The notes under the pieces were generated by a model that saw only the letters and a list, made by a program, of their open reading frames with translations, made no database searches and had not been told where the DNA came from. Below are positions 1 to 35,075 of a DNA stretch of 64,000 nt, in pieces. The DNA comes from Monocercomonoides exilis PA203 (lineage: Eukaryota > Protista > Preaxostyla). Positions within the stretch are counted from its first letter, which is position 1; the number at the start of each line of letters is the position of its first letter. Location: NCBI GenBank assembly GCA_001643675.2, contig LSRY02000045.1, positions 248,001 through 312,000 of the forward strand, in the 5' to 3' direction. The translations under genes were made by a program, and so were the position numbers.

Positions 1-375
1 TCCCCCTTCGTCTTTTTCGGCAACACATCCATTGAATGAGCTGTTTTCGATTTTGATAGAATTGATTGAAACACACAAAATTCCTCCACCATCATAATGC
101 GCATAGCAGTTGTTGAACGAACAAAACTTCACTGAAAGTGTTCCTGATGATAGACTATACATATTAATGGCCCCTCCATTCGAAGCCTTATCTGAATAAT
201 CATAATTTGTCCCAGTTGTATTTGAGCCATTCCACTCGCACCAAGTGAATGAATTTGCCCCATTTTCTGTAATCTGCTGTCTCGTTGGCTTCGACGGATT
301 CCCTTCACTTCCATTGACTGCAACATTCTCAGACCGATAGCACCTGACAAACGAGGTGTTCGAGGCAGCCAATGA
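1..375 (-). pseudogene. Inverted copy of the 5' part of the receptor-family fragment at 7828-8202 (runs off the window)
   Basis: Reverse complement of 7828-8202. Confidence 0.85.
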
Positions 376-1198
376 CTGAGATATTAGAAAAGACAAAAAG
401 ATAGCGATACAAGGGATATGAAGGACAACGGATGAATGGATCTGAAAAAATGCAAAAAGAAGAGAAATGTGTCTCACCAGCCAAAAGCGCTGCCTCCTTC
501 TTCTCTTTTTATTTTTATCATTGTTGTTGAATGAATTGTTATATTTCTCAAATTTTTATTGTTAAAATAATAAGACAGTTGATGTTATTGAAACGCATTA
601 GTGGTATTTTTTTTTTAATTCTTTTAATTCAAAGCAAATTTTGAGAGTTTCAAAAGCTAAATGCCAATGGCCAAAACGTTCTTCCACTTTTCTTGAAAGA
701 CTCGTTTTGGAATTAAAGTTTATTGTTTCTTTTTTATTTTATTTATTGAATATGAAAGTGAATGATATGATGGAGATATTTTGGATAAACAACAATTGTT
801 TTTTTGTTCTTTTTTGTTTTGCTTTTATCGAAATATTTGAAATATGCATTGGTTGAATATTTGCAGCAACTCGGAGTGAATAATTTTCATTGATTCGTTT
901 CATTTTCACTTGATATTTTTTGAAAAATGCATTTGTAAATAGGATATTATTATTATTATTTTAATATTCAATATTTCCATAAAAAGGAAATAACTTTGAA
1001 CAAATTTTGTTTTTTTTGTTTTTTATTTATTTTCGAAAAAGATAGTTATTTAAATAGCAACGGAATGTTTGTATCACTTGGCCAGAATATCGATTCTTCA
1101 AACAGTTCTATTTTTTTTCACAATATTCAAATACTCATAATTTCACAGATGAGCCTTTTCACCATTTATTATTCAGAAGAAATACAAATGAAATATTA

Positions 1199-1447
1199 GA
1201 GATATGGTATACCCGCTATGGATCCATCTCGATGAGGTCTATCAGTATTATCTATTTATGTATATCTGGTGGTTGTTATCATCTAGTGTAATAAGTTGGA
1301 TAGGCAATGATAATTAGATAGAGATCATGAGGAGATTGCTGATACTCTTAGAAGTTTCTCATGATTAGATATTCAGTGATGTTCTATAAAGATGGAGTTG
1401 TTGATAGGTGTAATCGAGATATATCCATAGCGGGTATACCATATCTC
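1199..1447 (+). other. Terminal branched hairpin (left copy)
   Basis: Perfect 25-bp stem 1199-1223/1423-1447, extended by ATCTCGAT/ATCGAGAT (1226-1233/1413-1420) and CTATCA/TGATAG. Inner arms at ~1262-1320 and 1324-1365. Confidence 0.85.
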
Positions 1448-1480
1448 CAAGAAGGAGAATTAACTAAAACATTAACCAGT

Positions 1481-1711
1481 GTGTCGAAGTTTGTAAATTA
1501 GTGGTGAATTTGTGTGAAAATTGATGTTTTCGTTGATGAAATACATGAGTTGAACATGTTTGTTATGTAATAACAGGTATATGTGTTGAATCTGTTGATG
1601 TGATCGTTGATGTTATCGTTGATGGTAATAACAGGTGTATGTGTCGAAGGTGGTAAATTAATGGTGAATTTGTGTGAAAATTGATGTTTTCGTTGATGAA
1701 ATACATGAGTT
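1481..1711 (+). repeat. ~70 bp direct repeat pair (1481-1551, 1641-1711); only one copy in the right TIR
   Basis: GTGTCGAAG..GTAAATTA.TGGTGAATTTGTGTGAAAATTGATGTTTTCGTTGATGAAATACATGAGTT occurs twice, 160 bp apart; single copy at ~6652-6722. Confidence 0.9.
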
Positions 1712-1815
1712 CGCGACGAAGTTGCTCAGGAGACTTTGTCTCCGTTGAACATGTGTCGAACGTTGGTGATATCGCAAATAAAAATAATCGATTTTGTTTT
1801 TTTGTTTTATCGTAA

Positions 1816-2058
1816 ATGGGTCGGAAGAAGATATACGCAACTGTGGAAGAAGCGAAAGAGGCTCAACAGAAACAAATTAAACAGTTTCAGGAAAAACGTA
1901 AAGAAGAAACTAAGTATTACAACGAACATGTAACTGAGAAACAGAAGAAGTTGATTAAGATATTGAGGAGAAAGGTTATCGAAAGTGATGAGCTGTTAGA
2001 TGAGTTGATGGAAAAAGTTAGTGGTCATTTGACTGCACAGGGTGGACTGGGCAGTTAA
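1816..2058 (+). CDS. 80-aa small basic/coiled-coil protein in the left TIR, putative DNA-binding
   Basis: True ATG after a T-rich tract; MGRKKIYATVEEAKEA N-terminus then a charged helical segment; intact in both TIRs. Confidence 0.65.
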   Translation: MGRKKIYATVEEAKEAQQKQIKQFQEKRKEETKYYNEHVTEKQKKLIKILRRKVIESDELLDELMEKVSGHLTAQGGLGS

Positions 2059-2194
2059 TGTGTTAATTAATGAAACATAACTAACTGAACACGTTTGTTG
2101 TATCGTTGATTGTTAAAAACAGTGTTCATGTTGATGTTATTGTTGATTGCCAACATCTATATTTTTACTTGAAAAAGTGGTAAATCGGTAAACC

Positions 2195-2701
2195 GGATAC
2201 CGGGTTGTGGCAATGTCGAGATGCTTGGGGATGGGAAATGTTGAGTTAAATCTCCGAGCTTATCACCTGCACTGGGTGCATCGGGTGCACCGGGTCAAAT
2301 ATATTCTATAAATTATGTGGGCAAACGGGCAAACTGAGCAAAGTGGGCAAAATGAACAAATTAACGAAACATAACTGGTGGTTCACGTTCGTTGTACCGT
2401 TGATGTATCGCAACGAAGTTGCTCAGGAGACTTTGTCTCCGTATCAAACAGTGTCCACAATGGCGTTAGAGTTGATTGCCAACACCTATATTTTTTTGAA
2501 CAAATGGCAGGATGGTGGATTGCCACACTGATGTTTTTCACTTGATTTGGTGTTTATTTTGGTGTAATTGGCTTGAAAATGTATCAACCCGTGTCCAGGA
2601 TACCGGGTTGTGGCAATGTCGAGATGCTTGGGGAAGGGAAATGTTGAGTTAAATCTCCGTGCTGGAAGCGTGTCCAGGTGTCCAGGTGTCCAGGTGTCCA
2701 G
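2195..2701 (+). repeat. Iteron-like repeat cluster in the inner TIR (mirrored at ~5662-6168)
   Basis: ~62 bp direct repeat GGATACCGGGTTGTGGCAATGTCGAGATGCTTGGGGA(T/A)GGGAAATGTTGAGTTAAATCTCCG at ~2195 and ~2598; GGGTGCA-like x3 at ~2275; GGGCAAA-like x5 at ~2318-2351; GTGTCCAG x4 at ~2670-2701. Confidence 0.85.
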
Positions 2702-2961
2702 GATAGTTTAAGTTCATCTGAAAAGAGCTGCCAACATGCCATTTCTGCCAACATGAGCAATTTACCCCTAATTTACCATGATTTTGAGGGTTTTTATTTG
2801 TTTTCGACAGTGTTGTTATTTTGCCACATTGCCCATGATATCGTCAGTGGCATTTTTCATGTGGTGCACACTTTTTGCATTGTTTGTATATTAATGATTT
2901 CTAAAAAAACGATGGAGTTTCGGTTAATTTCCACCGAGTTGTCCACATTATCATCTTCTCT

Positions 2962-5346
2962 TCATTTGAGGAGTTGTTCACACTCCGGCTTGAGTTCAGA
3001 ACGTTGGATTTTATTTCCTCTTCCACCAACTCGTATTCTCTTTCATCTGACTTTGAATGCAAATTGGAATAAGTGATAGTTCTTGAATTCAACTAGTCTG
3101 TAACTGAGTGCTTCGGAACATCTTCACACTTCTTTGAGTTTATTGCAATGCTCCTGACAGAACACATCGATGACATATAGTGATGATGCAATGATATCTT
3201 TTTTTGCCTCTGTTGTTGGAATCGCGCTTGTGTTGAAATTGGAGAGATCTTTGCTGAGGAAATAACAGAGAAGTTGTTCAAAGAATTCATTGTTGAAAGA
3301 GTTTGTGAAATCCTTGAAGATTGTGAGATTGTTCTTATATTTTGAGTAACAATCACAAACAACTTATCTTCTGTCACCAATCTCAACATTGACTTTGAAT
3401 AAGTGATTTGTCACAAATATGAAGTTAGCTACGTTCTCAGCTGTTCTTCTCGGCTGATTCTTCTCATTGATTCTGATTGTTGAATCTGTGATTATACTCT
3501 TCAACGCATCAAAGTTAGCTGTTCGATCATCTCCAACATTCTTCAATTCATTAAGTGCAATCAGCATTTTCCCTTCAACGATGGAGTTAAACTGTCCTGT
3601 CAGTTCTGCAATCTCTGTGACATTCGGACATGAATACCCTGCCAACAGTTCAGCAAGAACATTTGTCCAAACATTCTTTCCAATACCTTGCAAACCTTTG
3701 AGAACAAGTGATGTTTCTGCTTTTTTACCAGGATTTTGGACAATTGACGAAATCCAACAGAGGATGTATTGATAGAGTTCTTCGTTGTTGTTGGCAATTA
3801 CTTCTCGTGTGAAATCAAGGAATGGTTTGATGATTTCGTCATTTTGTTCGTTTGCCATTTGGTATTTGAACACATGGAACAGGGAGAATATTCGAGGGTT
3901 ATCTGAGAAGAACTTCACCCCATCAATCGATAGAACATGTGAGTATTGTTCGAAAGCTGTCTCAACTGTGAGAGTCTTTTTGTCATCATGCCAGAGTTTA
4001 ATTGTTTTGAACAGTTCGTACATTGCTGATTTTGTCTTGAATGTAATTGAATGACAAGAGGTGTGAATGTCAAACTTTTTCACAATGAATTCCATCCTTG
4101 CTTCCACAAACCTCAGAACTTTTGTGAGATCTTCTGCGACTTCCGACAGTGTGGAGTATTGTTTTCGACAAGCTTTATCCCTGATTTCAGAGAACGAGAA
4201 CGATGAGTTGAGATCAATTTCATGAACAGTAATCTCTCGTGGAGGTTCTTCCTTTTGCTCATTCTCTTTTCTGAGGAGTGGAATGATCACATCGTTGTAA
4301 TATGTTGGATTCCATCTCTTGACAATCTTTTGAAGAACAAATGGATGTGACTTGTTGTCTCTGTGCCTGATTCGTTTCTCTTCAAAGTGAGTGATTGCGT
4401 TTGCTGTTAGAGCAGCTGTCTCTCTGATCTGATTGAAAAGAAAATCTATTGATTGATTGTCGAAACCGTTAATGTTGACGAGAGAGTTGAGAGCTGCAAA
4501 TAACGGCATAAGAGTTAACTCAGAATCAAGTGACAAAGAACCTGTATCGTTATGTATTTCAATATCTTTGAGTCCTTTGACAAGAGCATGAGCGACAGTT
4601 GGTGACATATCAACTACACCATCTTGTGTGAAAAGATTGTGCGGTTCAGCTGCAATTGTCGCTGATGTATTCTCTGTTTTGAGGTCAATACCGAATACGT
4701 CAAGAACACTTTCGAGTGATGAAAGATCTGTGAGCTCTCTGTAATTGTTGAGGGGAATGTATTTGGTGATGATTCTCTTGCCATCTTTCATTTCTCTGTA
4801 TGAAGAGTCAGCTTGAACAACAAGCCTCTGTTTTCCATCTCCAATACCTGCAAAAATGTCGATATCGTACTCTGGACTCGTGAACACTTTGGTTTGTGAT
4901 GAACATTTGTGGGGATAACCACACAGCTCACAATAAATAAGAAGACCACCATGAGCTGTTTGCACAAGTCAGACGTTTCGGTGGAGTTTTTCGAGAATGG
5001 AATTCTTGATGGTTTTCGTTTGTTCAGCTTGATGGGATTTGTTAATGTCAACATCAACGACACAGAGATCCAGACATTTGCTGATATCGACAGCTGTTCC
5101 AGTGTGGCGTTGACCTTGCTTCTTGTCAGAGTATTTCTTGTAGTCGAACAAGTCAACAAGGTAATCTTTCATTCGTTCTCCCACCGTTATCTGTTCTATT
5201 TCTATTGAATCAAGCAGTCGTTTGATTTCGTCTTCGGTGGCTGTTTCAATTGAGCTAATCAGTTTGATTTCGTCGTCAGTGTCTGTTTCAAATGAATCAA
5301 CCAGTTGTTGGATTACGTTGTCAGTGTCTGTTTGGGGGGTTGTCAT
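2962..5346 (-). pseudogene. Fused AEP (Prim-Pol) primase / SF3 (D5/NrS-1-like) helicase with in-frame stops
   Basis: ORFs 4969..5346 and 3364..4965 are in frame across a TGA (4969-4971). Motifs: DLCVVDVD (AEP motif I), TAHGGL-L-IY (motif II, expected His is Leu), Walker A GLQGIGKN, Walker B LIALNE, LKSIITD, FIFVTN, DRR. The same frame continues past TAA 3364-3366 with plausible sequence (FFEQLLCYFLSKDLSNFNTSAIPTTEAKKDII); more TGAs at 3124, 3043, 2962. True 3' end uncertain. Confidence 0.85.
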
Positions 5347-6304
5347 TTTATAAAAATTAAAAAAACAAATTTTTTTTGAAACAGATTTATTTTTGAGACG
5401 AAATTTACAGGTAAGATGATGTTGAGGTCAGTGTCGAACATTTACGGGGAACAGTTAATTTTCACAACTGACGATACAACTTATGTGCCACCAACGAATA
5501 AATAATGTGTACAGTGGACGATGTCATGTGGCAATGTGGCAAAATGACAACATAATCGAAAATAAATAAAAACCCTCAAAATCATGGTAAATTAGGGGTA
5601 AATTGCTCATGTTGGCAGAAATGGCATGTTGGCAGCTCTTTTCAGATGAACTTAAACTATCCTGGACACCTGGACACCTGGACACCTGGACACGCTTCCA
5701 GCACGGAGATTTAACTCAACATTTCCCTTCCCCAAGCATCTCGACATTGCCACAACCCGGTATCCTGGACACGGGTTGATACATTTTCAAGCCAATTACA
5801 CCAAAATAAACACCAAATCAAGTGAAAAACATCAGTGTGGCAATCCACCATCCTGCCATTTGTTCAAAAAAATATAGGTGTTGGCAATCAACTCTAACGC
5901 CATTGTGGACACTGTTTGATACGGAGACAAAGTCTCCTGAGCAACTTCGTTGCGATACATCAACGGTACAACGAACGTGAACCACCAGTTATGTTTCGTT
6001 AATTTGTTCATTTTGCCCACTTTGCTCAGTTTGCCCGTTTGCCCACATAATTTATAGAATATATTTGACCCGGTGCACCCGATGCACCCAGTGCAGGTGA
6101 TAAGCTCGGAGATTTAACTCAACATTTCCCATCCCCAAGCATCTCGACATTGCCACAACCCGGTATCCGGTTTACCGATTTACCACTTTTTCAAGTAAAA
6201 ATATAGATGTTGGCAATCAACAATAACATCAACATGAACACTGTTTTTAACAATCAACGATACAACAAACGTGTTCAGTTAGTTATGTTTCATTAATTAA
6301 CACA

Positions 6305-6547
6305 TTAACTGCCCAGTCCACCCTGTGCAGTCAAATGACCACTAACTTTTTCCATCAACTCATCTAACAGCTCATCACTTTCGATAACCTTTCTCCTCAA
6401 TATCTTAATCAACTTCTTCTGTTTCTCAGTTACATGTTCGTTGTAATACTTAGTTTCTTCTTTACGTTTTTCCTGAAACTGTTTAATTTGTTTCTGTTGA
6501 GCCTCTTTCGCTTCTTCCACAGTTGCGTATATCTTCTTCCGACCCAT
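6305..6547 (-). CDS. Second identical copy of the 80-aa protein in the right TIR
   Basis: Identical translation to 1816..2058. Confidence 0.65.
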   Translation of the reverse strand: MGRKKIYATVEEAKEAQQKQIKQFQEKRKEETKYYNEHVTEKQKKLIKILRRKVIESDELLDELMEKVSGHLTAQGGLGS

Positions 6548-6755
6548 TTACGATAAAACAAAAAAACAAAATCGATTATTTTTATTTGCGATATCACCAA
6601 CGTTCGACACATGTTCAACGGAGACAAAGTCTCCTGAGCAACTTCGTCGCGAACTCATGTATTTCATCAACGAAAACATCAATTTTCACACAAATTCACC
6701 ACTAATTTACCAACTTCGACACACTGGTTAATGTTTTAGTTAATTCTCCTTCTTG

Positions 6756-7004
6756 GAGATATGGTATACCCGCTATGGATATATCTCGATTACACCTATC
6801 AACAACTCCATCTTTATAGAACATCACTGAATATCTAATCATGAGAAACTTCTAAGAGTATCAGCAATCTCCTCATGATCTCTATCTAATTATCATTGCC
6901 TATCCAACTTATTACACTAGATGATAACAACCACCAGATATACATAAATAGATAATACTGATAGACCTCATCGAGATGGATCCATAGCGGGTATACCATA
7001 TCTC
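6756..7004 (-). other. Terminal branched hairpin (right copy)
   Basis: Reverse complement of 1199-1447. Confidence 0.85.
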
Positions 7005-7827
7005 TAATATTTCATTTGTATTTCTTCTGAATAATAAATGGTGAAAAGGCTCATCTGTGAAATTATGAGTATTTGAATATTGTGAAAAAAAATAGAACTG
7101 TTTGAAGAATCGATATTCTGGCCAAGTGATACAAACATTCCGTTGCTATTTAAATAACTATCTTTTTCGAAAATAAATAAAAAACAAAAAAAACAAAATT
7201 TGTTCAAAGTTATTTCCTTTTTATGGAAATATTGAATATTAAAATAATAATAATAATATCCTATTTACAAATGCATTTTTCAAAAAATATCAAGTGAAAA
7301 TGAAACGAATCAATGAAAATTATTCACTCCGAGTTGCTGCAAATATTCAACCAATGCATATTTCAAATATTTCGATAAAAGCAAAACAAAAAAGAACAAA
7401 AAAACAATTGTTGTTTATCCAAAATATCTCCATCATATCATTCACTTTCATATTCAATAAATAAAATAAAAAAGAAACAATAAACTTTAATTCCAAAACG
7501 AGTCTTTCAAGAAAAGTGGAAGAACGTTTTGGCCATTGGCATTTAGCTTTTGAAACTCTCAAAATTTGCTTTGAATTAAAAGAATTAAAAAAAAAATACC
7601 ACTAATGCGTTTCAATAACATCAACTGTCTTATTATTTTAACAATAAAAATTTGAGAAATATAACAATTCATTCAACAACAATGATAAAAATAAAAAGAG
7701 AAGAAGGAGGCAGCGCTTTTGGCTGGTGAGACACATTTCTCTTCTTTTTGCATTTTTTCAGATCCATTCATCCGTTGTCCTTCATATCCCTTGTATCGCT
7801 ATCTTTTTGTCTTTTCTAATATCTCAG

Positions 7828-9060
7828 TCATTGGCTGCCTCGAACACCTCGTTTGTCAGGTGCTATCGGTCTGAGAATGTTGCAGTCAATGGAAGTGAAG
7901 GGAATCCGTCGAAGCCAACGAGACAGCAGATTACAGAAAATGGGGCAAATTCATTCACTTGGTGCGAGTGGAATGGCTCAAATACAACTGGGACAAATTA
8001 TGATTATTCAGATAAGGCTTCGAATGGAGGGGCCATTAATATGTATAGTCTATCATCAGGAACACTTTCAGTGAAGTTTTGTTCGTTCAACAACTGCTAT
8101 GCGCATTATGATGGTGGAGGAATTTTGTGTGTTTCAATCAATTCTATCAAAATCGAAAACAGCTCATTCAATGGATGTGTTGCCGAAAAAGACGAAGGGG
8201 GAGGAATTATGGCTTATTCGATAACCTCGTGCGTTAGGATCAGTGGGTGCGAATTCCAGAAATGTTCTGCTTATGGCTGGGGAGGAGGACTTTATTTTTC
8301 AACTTTTCAGGTTTCTGGATCTTCCTGCATTGGAACGGAAAGCAGCAATGGAGAGAGCGCTTGTGTGTTTGAGTGCTCATTCACTTCGTGCTCGCTCACA
8401 AGTTATAATGGCGGAGGGATGTATTGCTCATATGTTCCATCTGCATTCAAAATGAGGGGCCTCCAGTTTATTTCGTGCAGTGCATTATCATATGGCGGAG
8501 GATTGGATTTCAGGCCAGTTCAATCAACACCTCCAAGCAACAACCTTTATTGCTATTTCTTCTTCTTCCACGATTGCAGTTGCAACGCTTCCACTCCATA
8601 TGGCCACGATGTGTATTTTCAAGATTATTACAATCTTTTTTCATCGGCTAACCCGTTCTTTGAATCATATACAACGAATAGCAATGATTATAGAGTGTGC
8701 CATAGATATTATAATGGAAGCAGTTGGACATATCTGCATACAGAAAAGAAGGATTGGTTGAAGGAAGGGATGAAGGATCGGTATGTTGGGGTGAGTGGAG
8801 ATGACACAAATAATCTGTGTGGGATGAGTGAGGCAGCACCTTGCAAGACAGTGGGGCATGCAGTGGGGTCGAGCATGGCGCAGCTGAGCTCGACAATCAC
8901 GTTGCTGGATGGGAAGCATGTGAGTGAAGGGGCGACAATCATTGTTGGGGAAAAGGAGATTTCTGTTGTTGGGAGAGGGAAGACAGTGAGTGTGATTGGG
9001 ACAAATTCTCTTTCTTCAATTTCAACGATGCTGTTCAGTGTGGCAAGTGGACAGTTGGAG
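7828..9060 (+). pseudogene. Truncated internal fragment of the Cys/Gly-rich beta-solenoid receptor family (variable domain)
   Basis: Within ORF 7726..9087. Homology to the 48081 gene starts abruptly at SLAASNTSFV and ends at SGQLE; unrelated sequence on both sides. Confidence 0.8.
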
Positions 9061-12000
9061 TCGAAATATTTTTGCTGGATGAAATAACGGCAAATCCCAG
9101 GTCTGAAGGAGAGCATCCAATAAAATCATCCGTATTTGTGCTGGCACTGCCACAACAGCCAATAACTGCCTTTGAGGTGAAAAAACAAAATTCTGCCACA
9201 GCCCATCGTCTCTCCTTACACCCCTCCCAATCGCTGTTTCCATTGCTCCCATCCCCTTCCCCGCTGTATTGGTTCACCCAGGTGCCCGGATCATCGAAAA
9301 ATTCTTCTGTTGCAAAACATCCCCAGCTGCGCCCTGCTGAGAAATAAAATCCGAAAAAATAGAAATAAAAAAGGTGCAACACGTCAACGGCTCCCTCGAG
9401 AGGCAAACAAAATGGCACACTTCCATCAGCATTGCAGAAAAGATAACATAGTAAAAGGAAACAACGCCACTCACCGACACCAAGCTGCCCCACAAGCCCA
9501 CTCATACCGCCAACTCACAACATTTTGCAGGCACAGCGCATAGAAAGAGGCATCACAAACATGCTCCATGCACAGGCACAGCCATCTGGCCGATAAATCG
9601 CTGCCTCATTTCCCAGGCACCCCAGAGGCTCGGCACCCGTACCACCTCAAGGATCGAATCACACCCCTCAGGGTATGCCATGTGCTATGTCTGTTCCTGG
9701 CTGCAAAACTTCTCTCAACACGCTTTCAGCTTTTTCTGTTTTCATTTGATCTGATTGCATAAACCAATTCATCAATCTATTTGAAAAAAATATTTTTTTT
9801 TTTTGAAATTAAAAATATATTTTTAATAATATTTGTAAAGAAGAAAAATGCCATTTCCCCTGATTTCTGTGTGTCCAGACTCCTCCAAATCCATTTTCTC
9901 AGCCATTTCTAAAGAATTCATTTGCCCTGGCTCCTTTTTAAAGGCAATAACGTGTGTTCATTCCCTTATATTTTTTCACACAGGGGAATGTCATTCAAAC
10001 AGACAGATAAATAAATATGTTTTGAGTGGAACTGAGCGAAAAAGAAATCAACAATGCGAATGAGAACAAAACAGAGAATACAGAGATTGAAATCTCTCTG
10101 AAAAAATACAAAATATTTTTTTGTGAATTTTGAAAGACATTTTCAATCCCTTCATGCACATCACAATTCAAATGCCTCCCTTTCCTTCATCTTCCTTCTC
10201 TTGTTTCAGCAAGCTCCACACCCTCCCAATGTTCTCCATTTCCCTCTTCTTTCCTCTCCCTTCCAAAAATACAACTGCCCCTCAACCTCACTCAACAAAC
10301 ACATCTGCTCCATGGGGCATATGCCCATCCAGCATCCTTTCCTCCGCTTCATCTTCACCCCCCTCCAACAACTGCCTGCCACTCACCATCCTCTCTCATT
10401 TCTTCTGTCTGCTTTCCCCATCCTTTCGGCTCCGAAACACACAGCATCTGTCGCCTCCATCAACATTGCCAACAACCTTGCTGAGCGTGGAATCATCACA
10501 CCCACAAACACTCCTCACCCCATTTCATTTGCCCAGCCACACCATCTTCCTCTTCACCTTCCTTCTTCCTCCTCCTTCTCCCTTTCCATTCCATCCCAAT
10601 CCCCTGCCCCTCTGCTTTTCTTCTTTCCAACTCCCTTCCAAAGACACCTCCAAGCAGGCTGCCAACTTCCCCTTCCATCACCTTCCTCATCCTCATCCTT
10701 TTTGCAAAACAGACACATCTCAATCACTCCCAACAACATCCAGCCCCTCCCTTCTGCTCATTCACAAACACATTCCCCCAAAGACACAAATGTCAAAAGG
10801 GAATGCCAAAGGCAATGCAACCTCCTCCACACACACTTTCCAATGTTATCAATGATGAGCAGCCACACCACAAGGCTGGCAATAACTCACAAAAGAAGGA
10901 TAAACAACACAACTGATTCTTTTTTCTTTTCCCCCACGAACTGAGTTTCATCCACCATTCCACCTTGCTCTTTCATCTTCATTTCCCTCTGCTCCCTTCT
11001 CCCAACTCGTTCTGGACGAGACATCTCATTCCTCCACCAACCTCTCAAAAATCACTAACTACTCCATTCTCCACAAATGCATCCTTCTCGTTTTCCCAGA
11101 TATCTGATTGCAAAAGAAAACAAACTGCATGAACCAGCCCCACCGTTTCTATCAAAAAATTCATCTTTCCATATCCTCAAATACAGTTTAAAAAAACCAT
11201 CACTCATTCGATATGGAACACATATGAATTGAAACTTATGAGATGGCCAAAGAATGTGCATCCTGCTCAAAATTCACTCAGACACACCAATTGATAATTC
11301 AATCCTTGCTCAGTTCACAGAACTTTTTTGACAATCCCAATCAAAAAATGTCCATCTTGTTGTCTTTCCTTTTGCTTCATGCAAGGCTTCATTCACAAAC
11401 AGATTCAAAATTATTCCTCTTCTCATTTCTAACCTTTTGCATTCTTTCTTTTTCACTTCCCTTTCCATGAACTCATAACACTGATGATCGCCAAAGTGCT
11501 TGCGTTTCTGGCCTTGATGACTCCAATTCAAAAACCAAGCGCTTTGTCATATTTCCTTCCACAAGCAAAAAATCAAAGACGGATAAACAATCCTTGTTTC
11601 TTCTGATTGATTGATTCACACACTGGGCTCAGATGGATTTTCTAAATAATGTTGATGAAGATAACAAATCGAAACAGGGGATGGCGATGAAGAATGGCTG
11701 AAAAAGAGACGCTCCAAGTGGTAATCAAATGGCATTTCAGTCGAAGACAAATGCCTTTCTAACACAAGAAAATCATATTGTTTTGTCTCTTTGGGTGGTT
11801 GAGGGATGTTGATCCAATTTCCCAGATCGAGTGTTGGCGAATATGAAGAAGAAGAAAAAACGTTTGAGAACATGGAAAGAGAATATGACTCACGAGGGAA
11901 AGAGAAAATTAGGATAAATGAAAATTATCCATTTGTATCTATGTTGGATTTCACAATGAAGTTGAAAGATGGTCCCAGACGTTGTCCAACATGAGAAGAT

Positions 12001-17150: not shown

Positions 17151-17519
17151 AGGATGTAAAATGCATTAAAGAAGTCAGAAAATAATAATTGAAGGGTGTA
17201 TGAAAGAATGAGCAGTTGCAAAAAATAAATGAAATAAAATGAAATGAAGATATATTTTTTTTTTCCCTTTTTTGAAGGTTTTGGAAGACATATACGATGA
17301 ATCTTGTTAAAAGCAAAAAGAGGGAAACAGAAATTGATGATAAGACAGAAGAAGAAATTTGGCAAATAATTGAGAAGAAAAATATGTTTATAAGAAATTT
17401 GAATGAAAGAGAAAATATGAATAAGGCGAAGAAAGAAGGGAGGGGAAAATCAGAGATATGATTTTTTAGAGATATTTGAAGAAAAGTTGGAAAAAGGAAG
17501 AAGATGAGATATTTTTTTT

Positions 17520-19700
17520 GTGAGGGAGTTATTGAACACGTCGGTTGAGTTAAATCAAATTTTATTGGAGAATTATGATAATTGTTGTTCAGTGTGTGGA
17601 ATGAAGGGAAGTGTGGTTGTGGTGAGGGGATGTGGTGTGGAGATGGGGAGAGGCAAGGAGGCAGGGGTGTTTGAGCTGGGTGGGTGCAGAGGGGTGTTTT
17701 GGAACATCACGCTGAGAGGGATTGGAAGGGGAGGAAATGTGTGTGGGAGACTGTTTGGAGGAGAGGGGAGGATGGGGCAGACGAGGAGTGAGAGAGAAGG
17801 TGGGGGAGGAGGAGGAGGAGGATGGGGAAGAGGAAGCGGAAGAGATGAAGTAGGAGAGAGAGGAGAACAACGAGGAGGTGGTGAAGGAAGAAGAGGTGGA
17901 GAAGGAAGAGAAGAAGGAAGAGAAGAAGAAAGCGAAGGAGGAGGGAGTGTATTGGTGAGTGAGTCGCACTTCTCATCTTTTTGTGTGTCTTCAGCCCCGT
18001 TTCTGGCACCTCCCCTGATACGCCTTGTATCTCTCACCCAGCTGACCTTCTTCAACATCTCCACAAATCCATCGAAAACAACACATCTGGGTGAAGGGCT
18101 GAGCCAAACCTCGTTTCTGATGAGTGGGTGCACATTTTCATCGGTGTTGGATGTTTGTGACGGGGGCATTGTCCCTTCACTGAACAGCCCCTCATCATCC
18201 TTGGCTGCCTCGAACACCTCGTTTGTCGGATGCTATCGCTCTCAGAATGTTGTAGTCAGCGGGAGTGAAGGGAATCCATCGAAACCAGCGAGACAGAATC
18301 AGACAGACAATGGGGCAAATTCATTCACTTGGTGCGAGTGGAATGGCTCAAATACAACCGGGACAAGTAATTCTTATACAGATGGAGTTTCGAGTGGAGG
18401 GGCGATTAATATGTATAATCTGGGATCTGGTACACTTTCAGTGAAATTTTGTTCTTTCAACAACTGCTATGCATATTATGCTGGGGGAGGTATTTTTTGC
18501 TATTCAATCAATTCCATCAAGATTGAGAACAATTCGTTCAATGCATGTACCGCAAAAAATAATGCAGGAGGAGGGATAAATGTTGGCTATATTTCAGAAT
18601 GTGTCAGGATCGGAGGTTGCGAGTTCCAGAATTGTAAGGCAAGTGGTACAGGAGGGGGGCTTGATCTTTATAACTTTAATGTTTCTGGATCTTCATGTAT
18701 TGGAACGGAAAGCGACAATGGAGAGAGCGCTTGTGTGTTTGAGTGTTTCTTCACTTCGTGTTCTCTTACAGGTTCAAGTGGCGGAGGGTTGCTTTGTGAA
18801 AGCGTTCCAGCTGCATTCAAAATGAGGAGCCTCCAATTTATTTCGTGCTCGGCAGTGTCATATGGTGGAGGATTTTGGTTTAATCCAAGTCGATCAACAG
18901 CTCCAAGCAACAACATTTATTGTTATTTCTTCTTCTTCCATGATTGCAGTTGCAGTAATTCCACTCCATATGGGCACGATGTGTATTTTCGAGATGCTAA
19001 CAATCTCTTTTCGTCATACAACCCGTTCTATGAATCGTACACAACGAATAGCAATGATAAGAGAGTGTGCTATAATGGTAATAGTCTTCAACATACAGAA
19101 AAGAAGGATTGGCTGAAGGAAGGGATGAAAGATCGATATGTTGGGGCGAGTGGGGATGACGCAAACAATCTGTGTGGGATGAGTGAGGCAGCACCTTGCA
19201 AGACAGTGGGGCATGCAGTGGGGTCGAGCATGGCGCAGCTGAGCTCGACAATCACAGTGCTGAGTGGGAAGCATGTGAGTGAAGAGGCGACGATCAGTGT
19301 TGGGGATAAGAAGATTTCTGTTTTGGGGAGAGGGAAGGCAGTGAGTGTGATTGGGACAAATTCTCTTTCTTCGACTTCGCCAACGCTGTTTAGCATATCT
19401 TCTGGCCAACTGGAGGTGGGGCATGTGGGGATCGATCACAATGCAACAAGAAGCCCATCGCCGAGTGTGTTTGTGGTGTCTGTGGGGAGCGGGACTCTTT
19501 CACTGGAGGATGTTTTGATCAACTCTTCGACATCAGGAGGGAGTGGAATGACGAAGTGCGTGTTTGAAGTGGAGCTGAGGCAGCTGAAAACGATTGATGT
19601 GGAGATAGAAAATATGAAAGTGAGCCAACTTCTGTTTGTCGAACCATCATCAGTAGGATTGGCATTGGGAGAAAATTGGTTGTTGTTTATTTTGTTCTGA
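17520..19700 (+). pseudogene. 3'-truncated copy of the beta-solenoid receptor gene (726 aa ORF; real start probably upstream)
   Basis: Colinear with 48120-50250; homology stops near 19660, where AT-rich DNA begins; no TM segment or kinase tail. Confidence 0.8.
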
Positions 19701-21740: not shown

Positions 21741-23143
21741 GGAAGAGGGTAACAATACACCACAATCCAAAATATATATATTTTTGCAGATAATTACTAG
21801 TTACACATTTGCAGGAAAGAATTATCATATCAAACCTCCGGGTTTATGATAGATAATATTTTTAAATTTTGGAAAAATATCTTCTTTTTATGGGATGGAT
21901 TAAATTTGACGCATTTATGTCTCACATTCTGGATCGCAAATCAAATATTTTTCAAAAAACAAAATTGTTCCAAGATAATGAGGCAATGTGGAATAGGATA
22001 ATGAGATTTATGCCATTAGCAGTGAACAGAAGATGCCCAAAGTGCAGGAAAAATTACTCCATAGAAGCTCGAGATAATTGCAGAAATTAGAGGTGTAACA
22101 AATGTGGAAAATATTGCTAATTGTTAGGATTGACTCCTTTGAAAAATTCAAAAATACCAATAGAGAAAATTATGATGATATTTCTGTGTTTCTGGATCAA
22201 CATAGAAATATATCAGTGGCGCTTATTGACTGATGTTTCAAGACAAACTGTTGGTGGTTTTTATTCCATTGGAAGAGCATGCATAGCTGATAACTGTTAT
22301 CCATCTTTCGAAAAGCTTGATTATCAATTATTATTCCCAGACGTAGATGAGTCAATTCAACGAAAAAGATAGTTTCGAAAAGGAAGAAGAAAGAAACAGA
22401 TATGGTTATTTGGAATAATAGAAAGAAAACATGATGGAAAAAAAGGGAAATGTTTGATTGTGAGAGTGAAAAACAGAAAAGAGAAATTTTCATAACAATA
22501 ATCGAAAAAAACACAATTCCAGGATCAACTATTTACTCAGATGAGGTGAAAGCCTTCAGCTCTATATCATCTTTAGGTTATGATCATCACTCTATTTGTC
22601 ACAAATACAATTTTGTAGATCCAGAAAGTGGCATTTGCACATTATTGATTGAAAGTACTTGGTCAAGCTTTCGAAAATCTCTTCCTCGAAATGGAATTAT
22701 AGAAAAATATATTGATGGCTTTGTGACGAGCTTTCTTGGAAAACGATCAGAAACACTTTAATTTGAAGATTTCATTCAAAAATTACTCGTTTATAATCCC
22801 TTAAATGTTGAAAAAGAAATTGATGAAACAGAAGAAGATGAAACCGAAGAATCTGATGAAAGTGATGTGCCAGTTTTAAATGATAATGATGAAGAAACTG
22901 AAGATGAAATTGATTCTTTAGGAGCGGGCAATGGAACAGATGCATTCGAGTACGAATTGTGACAATTATATTTTTTTAATTCGCATGTTGACCCTAAATA
23001 ATATATTTTCTATGAAAATTCATTTTTGTATTTCTTCAAAACTCGGAGTTGGAAGTAACAGAAAATATTATAAAACTATGAATATTGACATGCAGAACAC
23101 AATATCAATGAATTTGGGTTGTGGTGTATTATTTCCTTCTGCC
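21741..23143 (+). mobile_element. Merlin (IS1595/ISXO2-like) DNA transposon, decayed
   Basis: Imperfect ~33 bp TIRs: GGAAGAGGGTAACAATACACCACAATCCAAAAT vs revcomp GGCAGAAGGAAATAATACACCACAACCCAAATT. 8-bp TSD CTATCTTT/ATATCTTT. Transposase remnants inside. Confidence 0.85.
21890..22962 (+). pseudogene. IS1595-family DDE transposase with stops/frameshifts
   Basis: CPKC zinc ribbon, DVDES, then PGSTIYSDE...GYDHHSICHKYNFVDPESGICTLLIESTW; acidic C-tail. Confidence 0.85.
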
Positions 23144-24000
23144 ATATCTTTTGTTGAACAGAATATACAATACAAAACTTATATTAATTGATATATAAAG
23201 TGTTATGAATGCTGCATCGCGAAAAGAGGATAACAAATAGTTTCAAAAAGAAACGGAAATAACTTTATAGCCTGCGATCAAGATCGGTAAATGTAATGTT
23301 ATTTTTTTTTAACTTTTTTTTATTGATGTTTTTGAATTTCTTTTATTAATAGGAAATAGATATAGAACCGAATTTAAATGAACTCAGAAAGATTATCCTA
23401 AGTCGAGAAAAATGCAACAATCAGAAACAACTGACTTGTCTTTCTGCTTGGCGGTTTTTAATTAACAGATTTTTTTGCGGCAAATGAATAATCCTTGTTA
23501 TTGCATCTGAGCAATATTTCGCGAAAACTCAGCAAGAGAACTTGAAGATCTGACTGGATTTTTTGACTGTCAAAGAAAAGAAGAGAAAAAAAGAGAAAAG
23601 AAAAAAAGAGAAAAGAAAAAAAGAGGAAAAGAAAATAAAAGGAGGAAGAACAGGAAGATTATTTTGAAGAAATGACTCAACTTATTTGACAATTTCTTAT
23701 AACTGACAGTGGTGCTGAAGAATCGAAATGAAAATGACCCAAAAGGACAGTATTTGGAGAAGATGGAGGAATAAGAATATGGAGATTTTATTGCAAGCCC
23801 TTTTGAAACTTTCGTTTTTTTAAAGACGAAAGTTATTCAATAAGATTGTCATTGAGAATTTCTGATTGTTTTGTTAAAACTTGAAATGAAAAAAGTTATA
23901 TATCGAATCTCTTAAATTTTGAATTTCTCTTCTTTTTTTATTTCACAAAATTGAAAACATGTACTTGAAACTTCAATAACGTTTTATAATATATATATAT

Positions 24001-24205
24001 GGCTGATTCTTTTTGGAATAACACTTTTATTCAAGTTTTGATCTAAATTTTTTCTCAATAGGATTTTGATAAAAACGAGTTGAAATAGGGAACACTAATT
24101 GTTTATTACATTGCAACTGCATCAACAAATTTTTATACAAATCCCATTGAGATTGAATATTTGATCAAAACTCTCACGAAAGAATAATTTCAAAAAGGAT
24201 CACAC
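24001..24205. mobile_element. ~205 bp MITE, copy 1 (degenerate)
   Basis: GGCTGATTCTTTTTGGAAT...ATTTCAAAAAGGATCACAC flanked by ATAT/ATAT. Confidence 0.7.
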
Positions 24206-25000
24206 ATATATATGAGTGATTATTTTTTAATTCATATTTTTTCGTTCAAAAATTTCTGTTCAAAAGTTTTTCTTGAATATCAACAAATGAACTATGAAAA
24301 ATGAAAATGCTTATAATAAACTTTTTTTTTCATAATTCGGTTTCAATATTTTTTTCAGAAAACAGTTATCATGCTTTTTCTTTTTTGAATTCATAAAATT
24401 TCTCTTCAAATAAACAATATTTGAAAAAACGACAAACCAAAAATAGTTATGATTTCGAAAATAATCACCCATATATATATATATTTATATATATATATAT
24501 ATTGAAAAAAATGAAGTGAAACAAGTCAAAAAACATTGATAAATTAACATTTTGATTTCATGATTTTTTTTTTCTTCCGTAACCTTCTTCAAAAGTTTTT
24601 CAGCTAAAAATTTCTCATATTATTCATCTTGAATTCATTATTTTTATTTTCGTTCTTTCCAGCTTTCATTCACCATTCTTTTCATTAGCATTTCTTTCAG
24701 TTTTTCCTCTGTTTTTTCAGGTCATCGTATTTTTGATAGAATAATTGGATAAAACAACACAGAGAAGAAAACTGTCATTCATATCAATTAACTGGAGCTC
24801 CATGAGAAAATAAGATCATTTATTGCCATGAAAACAGATAATAATGATACAGTCACAAATGAAACAAAACAAATGAAAGTTAACAAAGCAGACCTTAACA
24901 AGAATAACCACTTCATGCTACATAAAGAAGTCTCATTATAAGCAGAAATTGAACAAATTATATCTAAGCAATGAGTTGAATAAGTGATTATATACCAATA

Positions 25001-27111: not shown

Positions 27112-27997
27112 AATAAAAGAAATGACATATTATTTTTTTCCTTGTATGTGCATTTGTGACATGTTTTTCAATTGAAAATATTCTTCATTTGGATATTGCA
27201 TGGATTGACTTCATCGCTTTTTGGTATTTGTTTTTCATCAATAACAGAATGGAACATCAATAATGGCACCTTTAAAAGATCTATAAATTAAATGGCTTGA
27301 TATTCAACTATCTATAAATAATAATTGCTCACTTCAAATCGTTAAAATAGAAAGAATTGAAATAATTTAAAAATGAAAGAAAATAAGTGAAACCAAGTTC
27401 CAAATTCGGTTTAATATAGAATAATATTTAAGCTAAAAGATATTTTGCTTGAATTTTCTTCTTTTTTGTTTTCAACAAACTTGTATTCATGAAAACAAAG
27501 AAATTATTAATGACAATCGATAGATAATGAGCGAAAGTCAGAATGAAAAGCAAGGAAAAAATGCCTGTTATATTTTGTAATATTGATGGTTGCAAAACTT
27601 CTTCTGAATGTTTCAAATATCTGACATGGAATGACGTCACTAACTTGTGACGTCAGCGATGTTTCAAAATTCCGATTCCAGCTTTTGCATCAGTGAAAAA
27701 TGCATTTTAGAAATTTCAATATAAAGAATTTTTGTATTTTTTAGATATTAAAATGATTTATAATAATGTTTTTTTATGAAAATATGATTTTTATGAAACT
27801 ATTAAAAAAAACTTGTTATTTTTGTCTAGTGACGTGGAAGTCTATCACGTCCGTCAAAAATCGAAATAGTCACGTCAGAAGTCACCACGTCACCCAGGAT
27901 TACTTTAAAGAAGCCTTATGCTTTTTTAATATAAATTCAAAAGAAAACATTTTGATTTTTGAAAATCACAAAAAAGATCAAAAATGAAAATATAAAT

Positions 27998-28202
27998 GGC
28001 TGATCCTTTTTGAAATCATACTTTCGTTCGAGTTTTGATCAAAAAATTTTCTTAAAGGGATTTGAAAAAATTGAACAAAAACTGATAATACATATTGTTC
28101 ATGATGTTATTATTTTTAAAACAAAATTATTACCAAAATCCCATTGAGATAGAAATTTTGATCAAAACTCGAACGAAAGCATGATTTCAAAAAGGATCAG
28201 CC
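27998..28202. mobile_element. ~205 bp MITE, copy 2 (best preserved)
   Basis: ~47 bp near-perfect TIR GGCTGATCCTTTTTGAAATCAT.CTTTCGTTCGAGTTTTGATCAAAA; AAAT/AAAT flanks. Confidence 0.85.
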
Positions 28203-29539
28203 AAATTCTATTGTGGTATTAATTGATCAAATAGTTGAATTGTTTTTTTTGCAAGTACTTAGCTTTTATTTCTGTAATATATATTTGATTTATTTTTAAA
28301 TTCAAAAAACACACCTTTTTTATGTTTTTGGTGAAAAAGATTTATTGATCAAATTCATTTTTAAAAGAGCAAAAAATTTAGAAATCTATCTTTAAAAGGG
28401 AAATAGAAATTTCATAATTGGTAAAACAAAATATTGCAAAGAAAAAGTTTACAAAGAAGAATACAAAAGAGAAAAAAGAAAACAAAATTGTTGATTTTTA
28501 TTGATCAAAAACAGTTAATTTTCTTTTTTTTTTCCCCTCACCTTTGTATAGCCAACAAATCTCCATTCCTTTTATTCAATTCATCTGGTTCATCAAACGT
28601 TAAACGAAATCGTGGAACATTGGATAAAGCCAAGTTCAACAGCTAACTTTCCCTCATCGCCCAGAACAAAATCGTTGCCAGCAATGGAACTGATTCTGAT
28701 GCCTGTGGCAGACCCCAACAGACCCCATGTACCACCGTCGAGTATGCCCTCTACAGCTTCATTTCCCTCCTCCAAGACGCCTCTCTCACCCTCCTCACTT
28801 CAATATTTGTTCCTCTTCAAACACTCACATTCAGCGCAGTTGATACAAAAATAACAGAAAATAATGACTTTTTTCTGACTTCTTAAGAATTTCTTTCATC
28901 TTCAAATTTTCACCATTTTCCATATCATAGAAAACTCCTTTAGCTTTCATTGTTTTTTCAACAAGAGCATATATCATCACTTATTTTTCGAGAAGTTTAA
29001 CTAAGTTCCGAAAAAAATATAACTTTGCCATTTTCCATTTGATTTGGCTTCTTCATAGAAAGAAAATTTTGATCTTTGCAAAATGGAATCTTCCGTTTTC
29101 CTTTCTTCGATCATATCAGAAAGTTTTTCAAAAACATTTATTTCCTCAACTTTCCGATTTCAACTTGTTCGTATCCAATTAGAGCAAGTGTCTTATATAA
29201 TTTCTCTTCAAATATGTCTTTTCCTCTCAATTCCTTTTCTTCCTCGTTTCATTTGCAACAATTCGCTGTTGCTTCATACCTGCGAAATCTGTCGGAGGCT
29301 ATTTAGGAACCCATCCATTTCATAAAACAATAGCTTCAACGTTCTTTCTGTTTTCACTGCAAATGCTTCAGCTTCCAAATAAAAATGGCAAAATCTTCCT
29401 CCTTTTCTGATTGTACTCCATCAGATACGCTTTTCTTGGCTCAACGAAACACTGTCTTCTTTATCACATAATTTCAGCTTATATTCTGTGTTAGAATAAA
29501 TAATTATCTGTGCTTCTGAATAGAAATGAAAAATGATGT

Positions 29540-32346: not shown

Positions 32347-33722
32347 TGCCCACGCTAAGAAGAAGAAACTGAATGAAATTATAGCAAAAAAAGAGATGGT
32401 TCATATCTTTTTGCACAAATTGAATGAAGAAATAAAAAATAGAGTTTGAAAAAGTTAAAAAAGAAAAACAGGAAATATGATAAAACAACGAAAACAATAA
32501 GAGATAAATATGACAAAACTTATTCATTCAGAAACTGCGCCTTTATCTCTTCTTGATCAGAGCATATTGGTTATTGATTGCTCCAATACAATCAGACTGG
32601 AAAGATAAAGCGTCTCAATGATTTCCATGTAGAGGCAGTTCAGACAGGCAATGCGCTGCAGATTGCCAATGCACACACTCAGAAAATGACTGATGCGATC
32701 AACTCACAAGAAAAAGACGAAGTTCAAGATAAATAATGAAAATTAGTTCTAAAAATAACAAAAATTGAAAAAAAATATATTTAAAAATAAATACACAATA
32801 ATTCTTTGTTATTATTAAAAGAAAATTTCAACTCACACCACATCGCTTCAAATCTTCGTCATTGCCAAAGTCGATCTGTTTGGAATTCTTTTCTTTTCTT
32901 CAACCAAGCTCGGAATCTCCTCCATCTCCTTGACAATCTTCGCCTTCCTAAAATCCCTCTTCTTCTAAAAATCTGGCAATATAGAATGGAAAAACTCAAT
33001 TTCCCCGATAATTGCTGTATTCACCTGCTGTTCTCGCAAAGCTTGCTGCTCTGGGCGCGTCCAACTTCGCCTCTTCTCCATACTCATTCTCCTGCGATAT
33101 AAATTGTGTCTGCTTCCCAATCACAATCCCTTTCGGCTGTGTTATCTTCTTTCTCGCCTGCGTTTCTGTTCCGCTCGATGCAGAAAGAGACGAATCCCAA
33201 TGCTTCCATCCCTCGCCCCTCTTTCTTCTTCTTCTTCAGCTGCGTCGGCAGGATGCAGATGTCCTCGATTTCTGACTCCTTCGGAAACTCTAACTGCACC
33301 CACTCCAGCTGAATTCTCCTTGTGACTGGAATTTGTCACAAGTCCATCAGCTCCATCTGCATTTGCTCCTGTTGCGACTGCCACGCGACTTCCATTGCTC
33401 TCAAACTTGCTCCCATTTGGCCCGTGCTGTCCAGTGTCGAAGATAATTCTTTAGAAGTCAAGTCATTCCCTTATCCTTCTCCATTCCTTTTATTTCTTTG
33501 ACTCGAAAGCAAGCCATCTTCCATCTTTCCCATTTCTCCCTTGTTGCATCCACAGCCAGCTGTGCCGATGAGCATCTTTTCTGCTATTTTTCGCTTGTCT
33601 TTCTCTCTAGTTGATATCTTCTCATTTAAACAAGCCAGTTTGCTGTGTGAATTCTGCAGTGCATCAACACGCTTCGCTTTCTCTTTTTCATCTTCTTTAT
33701 TCAAAATCTCTCTTTTTGTTAT

Positions 33723-34160
33723 TCCTTCTTCTTCCTTTTCTCCTTCTTCTTCTTCTTCTTCTCCTCCTCCTCCTCCTCCTCCTCCTCCTCCTCCTCCTCC
33801 TCCTTCTTCTTCTTCTTCTTCTTCTTCTTCTTCTTCTTCTTCTTCTTCTTCTTCTTCTTCTTCTTCTTCTTCTTCTTCTTCTCCTTCTTCTTCTTCTTCT
33901 CCTCCTCCTCCTCCTCCTCCTCCTCCTTCTTCTTCTTCTTCTTCTTCTTCTTCTTCTTCTTCTTCTTCTTCTTCTTCTTCTTCTTCTTCCTTTTCTCCTT
34001 CTTCTTCTTCTTCTTCTTCTTCTTCTTCTTCTTCTTCTTCTTCTTCTTCTTCTTCTTCTTCTTCTTCTTCTTCTTCTTCTTCTTCTTCTTCTTCTTCTTC
34101 TTCTTCTTCTTCTTCTTCTTCTTCTTCTTTCTTCTTCTTTCTTCTTCTTTCTTCTTCTTC
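33723..34160. repeat. Compound (TCT)n/(CCT)n trinucleotide tract, pure pyrimidine on the + strand
   Basis: Direct reading; encodes poly-Glu/Gly in one minus frame. Confidence 0.95.
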
Positions 34161-34495
34161 GTTCTCTCTATTCTCTCTCTTCTTCTCATCAGCATTTCTT
34201 TCATTCTGTCTATTTCATTCATCCTTCTGAATATTCTGTTTATTTCTCTCAATTTCTTCTTTCTATTCATTTTATTCTTCTTCTTCTTATTTCTTCTTCT
34301 TCTTCTTCTTCTTCCTTTTATTTTATTTATTTCTTTTATTTTATTCATTTTCTTCATATTCTTCATCATTTCTTCGATCTCTTTTATTTCTTTTATTTTC
34401 TTCTTCTTCCTCAAAATCGAGTGAAAAGAATGAAAGAGAAATGAATAGAAGAATTGTGGGTGGAAGAAAAGAGATTTGAAAAGGGGAATATTCAA

Positions 34496-35075
34496 CGAGG
34501 ATGATGAAGAGGAAGAGGGAGATGATGAAGAGGGAGAAAGAGAATGAGAAAGAGGAGAAGAAGAAGAAGAGGAAGAAGGAGAAAGAGAAGAAGAAGAGGA
34601 GGAAAAAGAAGAGGAAGAGGAAGAAGAAGAAGAGGAAAAAGACGATGAAGATGATGAAGAAGATTGTACAGATGGTGTTGATGATGATGATGAAGGTAAT
34701 GTTAATGATTGAGAAGATGAATTAAAAGAAGGAGGAGGAGGAAGAAGACGAGAAAGAGATAAAGAAAGAGAACTTAAAGATGATGTTAAAGAAGAAGATG
34801 AAGAAATAGAAGAGGAAGAAGAAGAAGAAGAAGATGTTGTTGTTGTTGAAGATCAAAGAGAAGACGAGGAAGATGAAAAAGAAGAAGAAGAAGAAGTAGA
34901 AGAAGAAGAAGACGAAGAAGAAGAAAAAGAAAAAGAAGAAGAAGAAGAAGAAGATGATGATGATGGCAGAGGAGAGAAAGAGGAGTGGAAGAAAAGCGGA
35001 ACTGGTATTTGAAGCGGTGAGGAATAAGAAGCATCCGAAGAAGCAGAAAAAGGTGTTACAGAAGAAGAAGATCAT
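34496..35075 (+). repeat. GAA/GAG/GAT-rich low-complexity tract (decayed acidic coding sequence)
   Basis: Purine-rich triplets reading Glu/Asp with in-frame stops. Confidence 0.7.

Follow-up and report, generated by a model that had tools for sequence, protein, structure and literature searches.

A decayed primase-helicase element with long inverted arms and fold-back ends in Monocercomonoides exilis

Introduction

Polinton-like viruses (PLVs) are believed to exchange their replicase modules frequently, and these modules may also be mobile by themselves. Elements made of an archaeo-eukaryotic primase (AEP) gene alone, the 'mobile AEP-SF3 insertion sequences' of polisuviruses (SF3, superfamily 3 helicase), have been proposed (10.64898/2026.10.13.758929), as have repeat-flanked mobile helicases (PMC11296320); the published cases compared here are single contigs or genes without defined ends. 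Here we describe a 5.8 kb element with a single AEP-SF3 gene in a 64,000-nucleotide stretch of the Monocercomonoides exilis PA203 genome (assembly GCA_001643675.2, contig LSRY02000045.1, positions 248,001 to 312,000, forward strand; hereafter, the window). We read it as a dead copy from a dispersed family of small elements, and our best explanation, which we hold with about even confidence, is that the family is a stripped-down derivative of a Maverick (Polinton) or PLV that replicates itself and is supplied with an integrase in trans.

Mavericks are 13–25 kb long and are bounded by terminal inverted repeats (TIRs) of 100–1500 bp (PMC10748475). Those of vertebrates commonly end in (AG)3//(CT)3 and produce 6-bp target duplications (PMC8097293); the end-motif criterion for Mavericks also allows (AGT)2//(ACT)2, and the criterion for target-site duplications is 5–8 bp. 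The Mavericks of Trichomonas vaginalis carry a primase-domain gene beside the c-integrase (PMC7845603). PLVs often swap pPolB for AEP-SF3 fusions, with the Metamonada elements still unplaced (10.64898/2026.06.19.733378), and the mid-GC endogenous mavirus-like elements (EMALEs) have no pPolB and keep integrase and capsid (PMC8547959). M. exilis itself has six hits to the major capsid protein (MCP), all in one cluster (supplement tables S1 and S4 of PMC10120064). Its genome paper reports a large unclassified repeat fraction, 35% of the assembly, and the words virus, Polinton, helicase and inverted are absent from the main text. We found no account of the M. exilis family in a literature search that lay outside subscription papers, Repbase and bioRxiv supplements.

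Results

Structure of the element

Self-comparison of the window, folding and database searches recovered every component named in the original prediction, which had been made from the sequence alone: inverted arms, a terminal fold-back module, an 80-aa open reading frame (ORF), a repeat cluster and one AEP-SF3 gene. The features are as follows.

1198-7005, no strand: whole element, 5808 nt, termini 5'-AGAGAT...ATCTCT-3'; right bound from other copies stopping at 7005 and empty sites joining at 7006, left bound from symmetry only
1198-2845, plus strand: left inverted-repeat arm, 1648 nt, from window self-comparison
5517-7005, minus strand: right inverted-repeat arm, 1489 nt, from window self-comparison
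1198-1449, plus strand: left terminal fold-back (panhandle) module, with a 25-nt perfect stem, a further 8-bp stem and a long loop
6754-7005, minus strand: right terminal fold-back module, mirror of the left module; at least one other copy has it joined to the subterminal region
1816-2058, plus strand: 80-aa ORF, left copy; product basic and helical
6305-6547, minus strand: 80-aa ORF, right copy, identical to the left copy
2059-2845, plus strand: repeat cluster, with a 66-nt direct repeat twice, GTGTCCAG five times (four in tandem), GGGCAAA three times and a small hairpin
5517-6304, minus strand: mirror of the repeat cluster, from window self-comparison
2923-5346, minus strand: fusion pseudogene, pRN1/NrS-1-type primase-polymerase plus SF3 helicase, with five stops and a lost catalytic His
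7006-7011, plus strand: AATATT adjoining the right end, a candidate 6-bp target-site duplication; palindromic, with the left flank a mirror
1-1197, minus strand: host DNA mirroring 7006-8202, outside the element; either truly duplicated or misassembled

The arms enclose a unique core (2846-5516) that holds the one primase-polymerase (PrimPol)-SF3 helicase gene, and the end of the element reads AGAGATATGG. In the self-comparison the inverted repeat falls into two blocks, an outer one that pairs 1-1551 with 8202-6652 (99.9% identity) and an inner one that pairs 1640-2845 with 6723-5517 (99.3%). The break between them is 160 nt found in the left arm only (1491-1650), which leaves the arms unequal.

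The perfect stem of the left fold-back module pairs 1199-1223 with 1424-1448, its 25 nt exceeding the maximum of 14 among 200 shuffles; folding of the module gives z = -7.1, with none of 200 shuffles equally stable. The hairpin ends that had been predicted thus hold as stems beyond chance, while their form is that of a panhandle, with a short stem, a loop of about 160–180 nt and no long palindrome. We also considered the 250-nt end module as an independent miniature inverted-repeat transposable element (MITE) and rejected this, as its inner stem has no loose ends among the matches listed and another copy ties the module to the subterminal region.

Close homology to the 80-aa ORF was seen in one other protein alone, P0018 of M. 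exilis (88%), and the ORF has a T-rich upstream motif in common with the helicase gene. Its proposed role as a small DNA-binding protein gained no family match above cut-off, Atlas structure scores reached at most 0.87, and DNA binding is only a guess. The repeat cluster, whose small hairpin recurs at 1729, may be an origin of replication. Besides the 80-aa ORF, no ATG-started ORF longer than 60 aa lies in the arms or spacer; frames there other than the AEP-SF3 gene reach at most 142 aa from stop to stop and 80 aa when ATG-started. As first noted, no integrase or capsid gene is visible. The window copy has no frame of the size of an rve integrase (of the small frames, the Pfam scan covered the 80-aa ORF) and none of the size of a capsid, packaging ATPase or protease gene, and pPolB is likewise missing, the AEP-SF3 gene being the only long frame in the element.

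Ends shared with other copies, and empty sites

Outside data came from four runs (X1–X4) of one sample, in the form of assembled contigs only. For the end region (6700-7690), 24 of 127 loose-end matches were listed, and among these, contigs diverge into unrelated sequence behind 7005 in three runs (five contigs in X1, six in X2 and five in X4). The loose letters behind 7005 agree only at 0.55–0.57, which means different flanks, and one X4 contig of 968 nt follows 6877-7005 and then departs. Paralogues of the host flank, again among the 24 matches listed, join at 7006 with other upstream DNA (two contigs in X1, three in X2 and two in X3); these are empty sites in paralogous host loci. Because other copies stop there, the outer end lies at 7005 and, by symmetry, at 1198. 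The element had been given the limits 1199 and 7004; a sharp end is indeed found in other copies, one base further outward. Ends shared so exactly would fit insertion by an enzyme. Depth summed over contigs is higher across the element than in the flank, which is a pointer only and not a copy number.

A doubly inactivated primase-helicase gene

On the minus strand, the gene begins at 5346. Of its five stops, four fall within the first 794 codons and the fifth is at 2964-2962; together they are codons 126, 661, 741, 768 and 795. The frame had been predicted to run from 5346 to 2962; the natural gene end of the paralogues corresponds to about 2923 in the window, and the pseudogene thus extends further. 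Its assignment as an AEP-SF3 fusion held, with matches to DUF5906 in Pfam (E 5e-21) and to the NrS-1 helicase in a sequence search of the PDB (E 1.8e-14). The gene is already annotated as M. exilis model P0014, a 'putative Poxvirus D5 protein'. Moreover, the His of AEP motif II is replaced in this copy by Leu136. Judged from its sequence, the window copy is dead twice over, by its stops and by the lost His.

For structural comparison we modeled the full-length paralogue P0010 with a 100-sequence alignment (pLDDT 90.7). The model aligns with the pRN1 primase-polymerase over residues 25-196 (Z 10.0, root-mean-square deviation (rmsd) 3.4, 149 aligned), a stretch that also matches the NrS-1 PrimPol (Z 8.1), and with the NrS-1 helicase over residues 367-757 (Z 27.6, rmsd 4.6, 367 aligned). 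An Atlas structure search with residues 20-340 found Prim-Pol clusters at 0.95, and the closest cluster is 94% eukaryotic, mainly Parabasalia (TM 0.57). The AEP DxD, motif II His, Walker A and DRR motifs are broadly conserved among relatives. The helicase is therefore SF3 of the NrS-1 type, and the N-terminal domain has AEP motifs and a predicted PrimPol fold and is no HUH endonuclease. The intact protein is predicted to be a primer-making polymerase fused to a ring helicase.

A dispersed family and its relatives

Searches listed 29 M. exilis models of this gene, reduced to 28 by dropping P0002, a duplicate of P0010; one of the 28 is found in an older annotation only and could duplicate another model. 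They sit on 16 contigs, told apart by their lengths. Since 23 of the 28 overlap at one position, there are about 22 copies in addition to that of the window, and a single model, P0010, is full length without large gaps. The original call of an integrated relic is thereby upheld: the copy has decayed, and it belongs to a family that is dispersed and has a sharp end. A quick tree of 36 rows groups the M. exilis sequences as a shallow star (support 100) whose sisters are two unnamed, gut-type relatives; the next branch outward is a protein of Streblomastix strix (support 99). The tree includes no named Maverick protein, and the donor is beyond its reach.

A profile search returned 1248 representatives at E ≤1e-30. 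Among 20 of these that were looked up, 18 have no informative name, one is a 'hypothetical protein' and one is from S. strix. Fifteen of the 20 lie on contigs shorter than 5 kb, as expected if repeats on both sides of the gene had collapsed in assembly, but we give this no weight since short contigs are the norm; the other five lie on contigs of 5–12 kb. Viral contigs yielded no close relative by alignment A2 or by two clade-specific DNA patterns, and alignment A4, over 31 of 64 parts, found 80 distant loci there that match at 21–34% identity in the helicase part only. Metagenome contigs gave none by alignment A2, and the pattern search gave two short ones, L081 and L082. Genome contigs gave none at first and later one gene-only contig, L083; a plasmid search returned only 12 distant helicase matches. 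None of L081, L082 and L083 has inverted ends.

Two of these contigs deserve description. On the metagenome contig L081, a related SF3 helicase without a primase domain (107-2945) adjoins a DUF4108 gene (E 2.4e-12) and further small genes, with an upstream AT-rich motif in common; L081 resembles part of a virus-like element with several genes. We take DUF4108 to be typical of T. vaginalis repeats, and a literature search on the term gave no paper. L083 is a contig of 24% GC in a bacterial metagenome-assembled genome; its positions 1-2558 hold solely a related primase-helicase frame, 48% identical to P0094, and it is possibly a protist element that was binned wrongly.

The minimal layout in other copies

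The window copy could owe its layout to deletion, as one of a heterogeneous set of relics of ordinary capsid-bearing Mavericks or PLVs, with the minimal layout in few copies and never mobile as such. Several observations speak for this. Nearly every gene model is truncated, the species has MCP genes, five of the 20 checked relatives lie on contigs with room for more genes, and the L081 helicase has DUF4108 and other small genes beside it under a common upstream motif. The joints seen in other copies also reveal internal arm deletions that differ between copies.

The same joints, however, tie the arms to the gene. On the upstream side, other copies join 5447 to 6021, and 5518-5644 to 6010-6129 and on to 6316, so that this side of the gene is linked to the arm and its ORF; in X2, another copy joins 6657 to 6727-6954, linking the subterminal region to the end module. 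On the downstream side, the read-through tail of P0010 follows the downstream spacer of the window at first and ends in VPPTNK-stop, a string with a single occurrence in the six frames of the 64-kb window, at 5485, just inside the opposite arm. Since the tail matches the arm, the inverted arm lies within about 60 nt of the gene's end in the P0010 copy. The original prediction had set as a refuting case that helicase homologues never occur together with these TIRs, and they do, upstream and, in one copy, downstream. Given these joins, the minimal layout is probably not unique to the window locus and probably not a one-off deletion. Loose ends at the gene borders, among the 24 of 1473 matches listed, resemble variants of the same spacer and not new genes, and random deletion would seldom leave a gene snug between both arms repeatedly. 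We therefore doubt the account of heterogeneous deletion relics.

The mirrored host flank

The original prediction had the TIR stop at 1199 and 7004. The inverted repeat in fact continues beyond the element, reaching window position 1 after 1197 nt of host DNA, and takes in the start of a host surface-protein gene. Recombination between the arms or a misjoin at the repeat would each yield such a mirror. Contig depths point both ways. In X2, the contigs that cover the flank without a difference have depths of 216 and 190 against 103 at the unique junction, about double; in X4, the flank stands at 3.6 against 6.3 and in X3 at 4.4, with other single pieces at 2.6–9.4, about single-copy. That the flank mirror is an artefact is an evenly balanced proposition.

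A more sweeping doubt would extend this to the arms, making the whole inverted repeat a fold-back artefact or a local palindromic duplication with no terminal repeat at all. The 99.9% mirror through host DNA to the start of the window, the near single-copy flank depth in X3 and X4, and a second near-perfect palindrome at 35923-36851 all lend it some color. The arms differ from each other, however, by the 160-nt indel and by a few further changes, including substitutions, that are concentrated near the inner ends. Moreover, the left arm/core boundary is spanned without a difference by a short-read contig (2770-3087) in X2 and X4, the P0010 tail is arm-derived, and the X2 flank depth is about double. 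We regard an inverted repeat that is wholly artefactual or local as very improbable.

Cys/Gly-rich large host proteins are encoded by paralogues at 7648-9087, 17508-19700 and 47958-61055 (DNA 82–88% alike), and the element lies about 650 nt upstream of one of them.

A possible route of replication and insertion

The fold and layout suggest how a member of the family might move. An excised or copied linear unit would be unwound from the repeat clusters in the arms, and the PrimPol would prime and copy it. Each 3' end could fold onto the inner 25-nt copy, which may help to finish the ends with no terminal protein involved. An integrase of the DDE (rve) type acting in trans would then insert the AG...CT ends at AT-rich sites, and the family would have expanded in a burst and later decayed. 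We consider integrase in trans the likeliest route because the base-exact, Maverick-type ends suggest a DDE integrase, which the window copy is without; AGAGAT/ATCTCT agrees with (AG)3//(CT)3 in five of six letters. The MCP genes of M. exilis could mark helper elements.

An autonomous element, much as the original prediction envisaged, would dispense with the integrase, making linear copies by means of its PrimPol-helicase and fold-back ends and entering the genome by templated synthesis or by host repair at breaks. The window copy indeed has no integrase, its fold-back ends lie far beyond chance and are found in other copies, the species has at least 23 gene models against six MCP hits, and a preprint argues that AEP-SF3 genes may mobilise without integration genes (10.64898/2026.10.13.758929). 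Ends that are fixed to the base in several copies, however, suit an integrase better than repair, and they resemble those of Mavericks. A hairpin would also have no HUH nickase to resolve it, since the N-terminal domain matches a PrimPol in fold, and no free molecule was seen in data that consist of contigs only. On balance an autonomous, integrase-free element seems unlikely. Somewhat more unlikely still is the broader proposal of a new class of eukaryotic DNA transposons free of transposase and integrase, in which a PrimPol-helicase copies a linear unit from self-folding ends into AT-rich sites and a large, so far unrecognised family persists across oxymonads and other gut protists.

We return to the reading of a stripped-down, self-replicating Maverick or PLV derivative that is served in trans, against which several points weigh. 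The mirrored flank shows that the locus is rearranged or misassembled. As the mirror continues through host DNA, the window alone cannot fix the ends or a target-site duplication, and, the hexamer AATATT being palindromic and the left flank mirroring the right, a duplication is indistinguishable at this locus. No other copy was seen whole in the short contigs, and the upstream-arm and downstream-arm links were never seen in the same second copy; the downstream link consists of six residues of one protein. The five-of-six end match is weak by itself, and no helper with the same ends was found. Maverick descent would be inferred from comparisons that include no T. vaginalis Maverick primase, a 250-nt fold-back end is undescribed for Mavericks in the literature passages compared, and the wider clade, as L081 indicates, includes multi-gene elements.

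Other features of the window

The palindrome at 35923-36851 has arms of about 443 nt without mismatch and a loop of about 43 nt; it is AT-rich, has no match to the element, and either is a fold-back element or arose as an artefact of assembly. At 23993-24213, 27990-28209 and 43859-44076 lie repeats of about 215 nt that are related to one another; their inverted ends begin TGGCTGAT, and they look like a MITE family. An inverted repeat of 267 nt (43271-43537 and 45901-46167, 80% identity) encloses 2.4 kb of about 24% GC with no long ORF and is possibly an old DNA transposon. An ISXO2/IS1595-like transposase is represented by a fragment at 22435-22761 (plus strand; Pfam PF12762, E 2.9e-9), and low-complexity purine/pyrimidine tracts in a loose inverted-repeat arrangement occupy 33680-35071.

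Discussion

To the published replicase-module cases the M. exilis family adds defined ends, empty sites, more than 20 gene copies and one full-length protein, P0010. The host has a long-read genome, which makes the mobility of the family directly testable, and the family would give a name to part of the unclassified repeat fraction of M. exilis.

Among known systems, the phage NrS-1 polymerase and the plasmid pRN1 protein ORF904 (PDB 6k9c, 6a9w, 3m1m) have the same predicted two-part fold and the same motifs. They are 11–19% identical in structural alignments and, unlike the M. exilis element, belong to prokaryotic replicons without such arms. A parvovirus-type rolling-hairpin replicon fuses an HUH endonuclease to its SF3 helicase, whereas the element has an AEP/PrimPol N-terminus instead. 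Transpovirons have an SF1 helicase, are associated with giant viruses and exist as free linear DNA carried by the giant virus. Like them, the element is a small, capsid-less replication module bounded by TIRs; its helicase is SF3, and the transpoviron pair of pPolB and DDE (10.64898/2026.10.13.758929) is absent from it.

PLVs and mid-GC EMALE virophages resemble the element in replicating with an AEP-SF3 fusion or a long primase/helicase ORF, in their TIRs and in their integration into protist genomes. Unlike the window copy, which has none of these genes, they encode a capsid together with an rve integrase or a tyrosine recombinase. With the Mavericks of T. vaginalis and the Metamonada MCP group the element has in common long TIRs, a primase-domain gene and a metamonad host, and its AG...CT-type ends resemble theirs; its TIRs of 1489 and 1648 nt lie at or slightly over the Maverick range (PMC10748475). 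In contrast to Mavericks it is 5.8 kb rather than 13–25 kb long, has no pPolB, rve integrase, ATPase, protease or capsid gene, and ends in fold-back modules. On gene content the element thus belongs with neither Mavericks, PLVs, transpovirons nor parvoviruses, and it would work like the replication end of a Maverick or PLV.

Closest are the mobile AEP-SF3 insertion sequences proposed for polisuviruses and Bodo saltans virus, which likewise consist of an AEP-SF3 gene without capsid or integrase, bracketed by repeats and present in multiple copies. Past mobility, on which the proposal of mobile AEP-SF3 elements turns, is indicated here by a shared end, different flanks, empty sites and models on 16 contigs. 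Those insertion sequences are single contigs or genes within viral genomes, and the Bodo saltans virus copies have no flanking repeats, whereas the M. exilis element sits in a eukaryotic chromosome, where empty sites also occur; its end is exact to the base, and it has 1.5-kb arms with fold-back ends and an accessory ORF. The original prediction had seen a candidate new class of linear replicon. Its ends, however, resemble those of Mavericks, a related helicase stands in a multi-gene context on L081, and mobile elements with AEP-SF3 as their only gene have already been proposed; the M. exilis family is a variant of these and not a new class.

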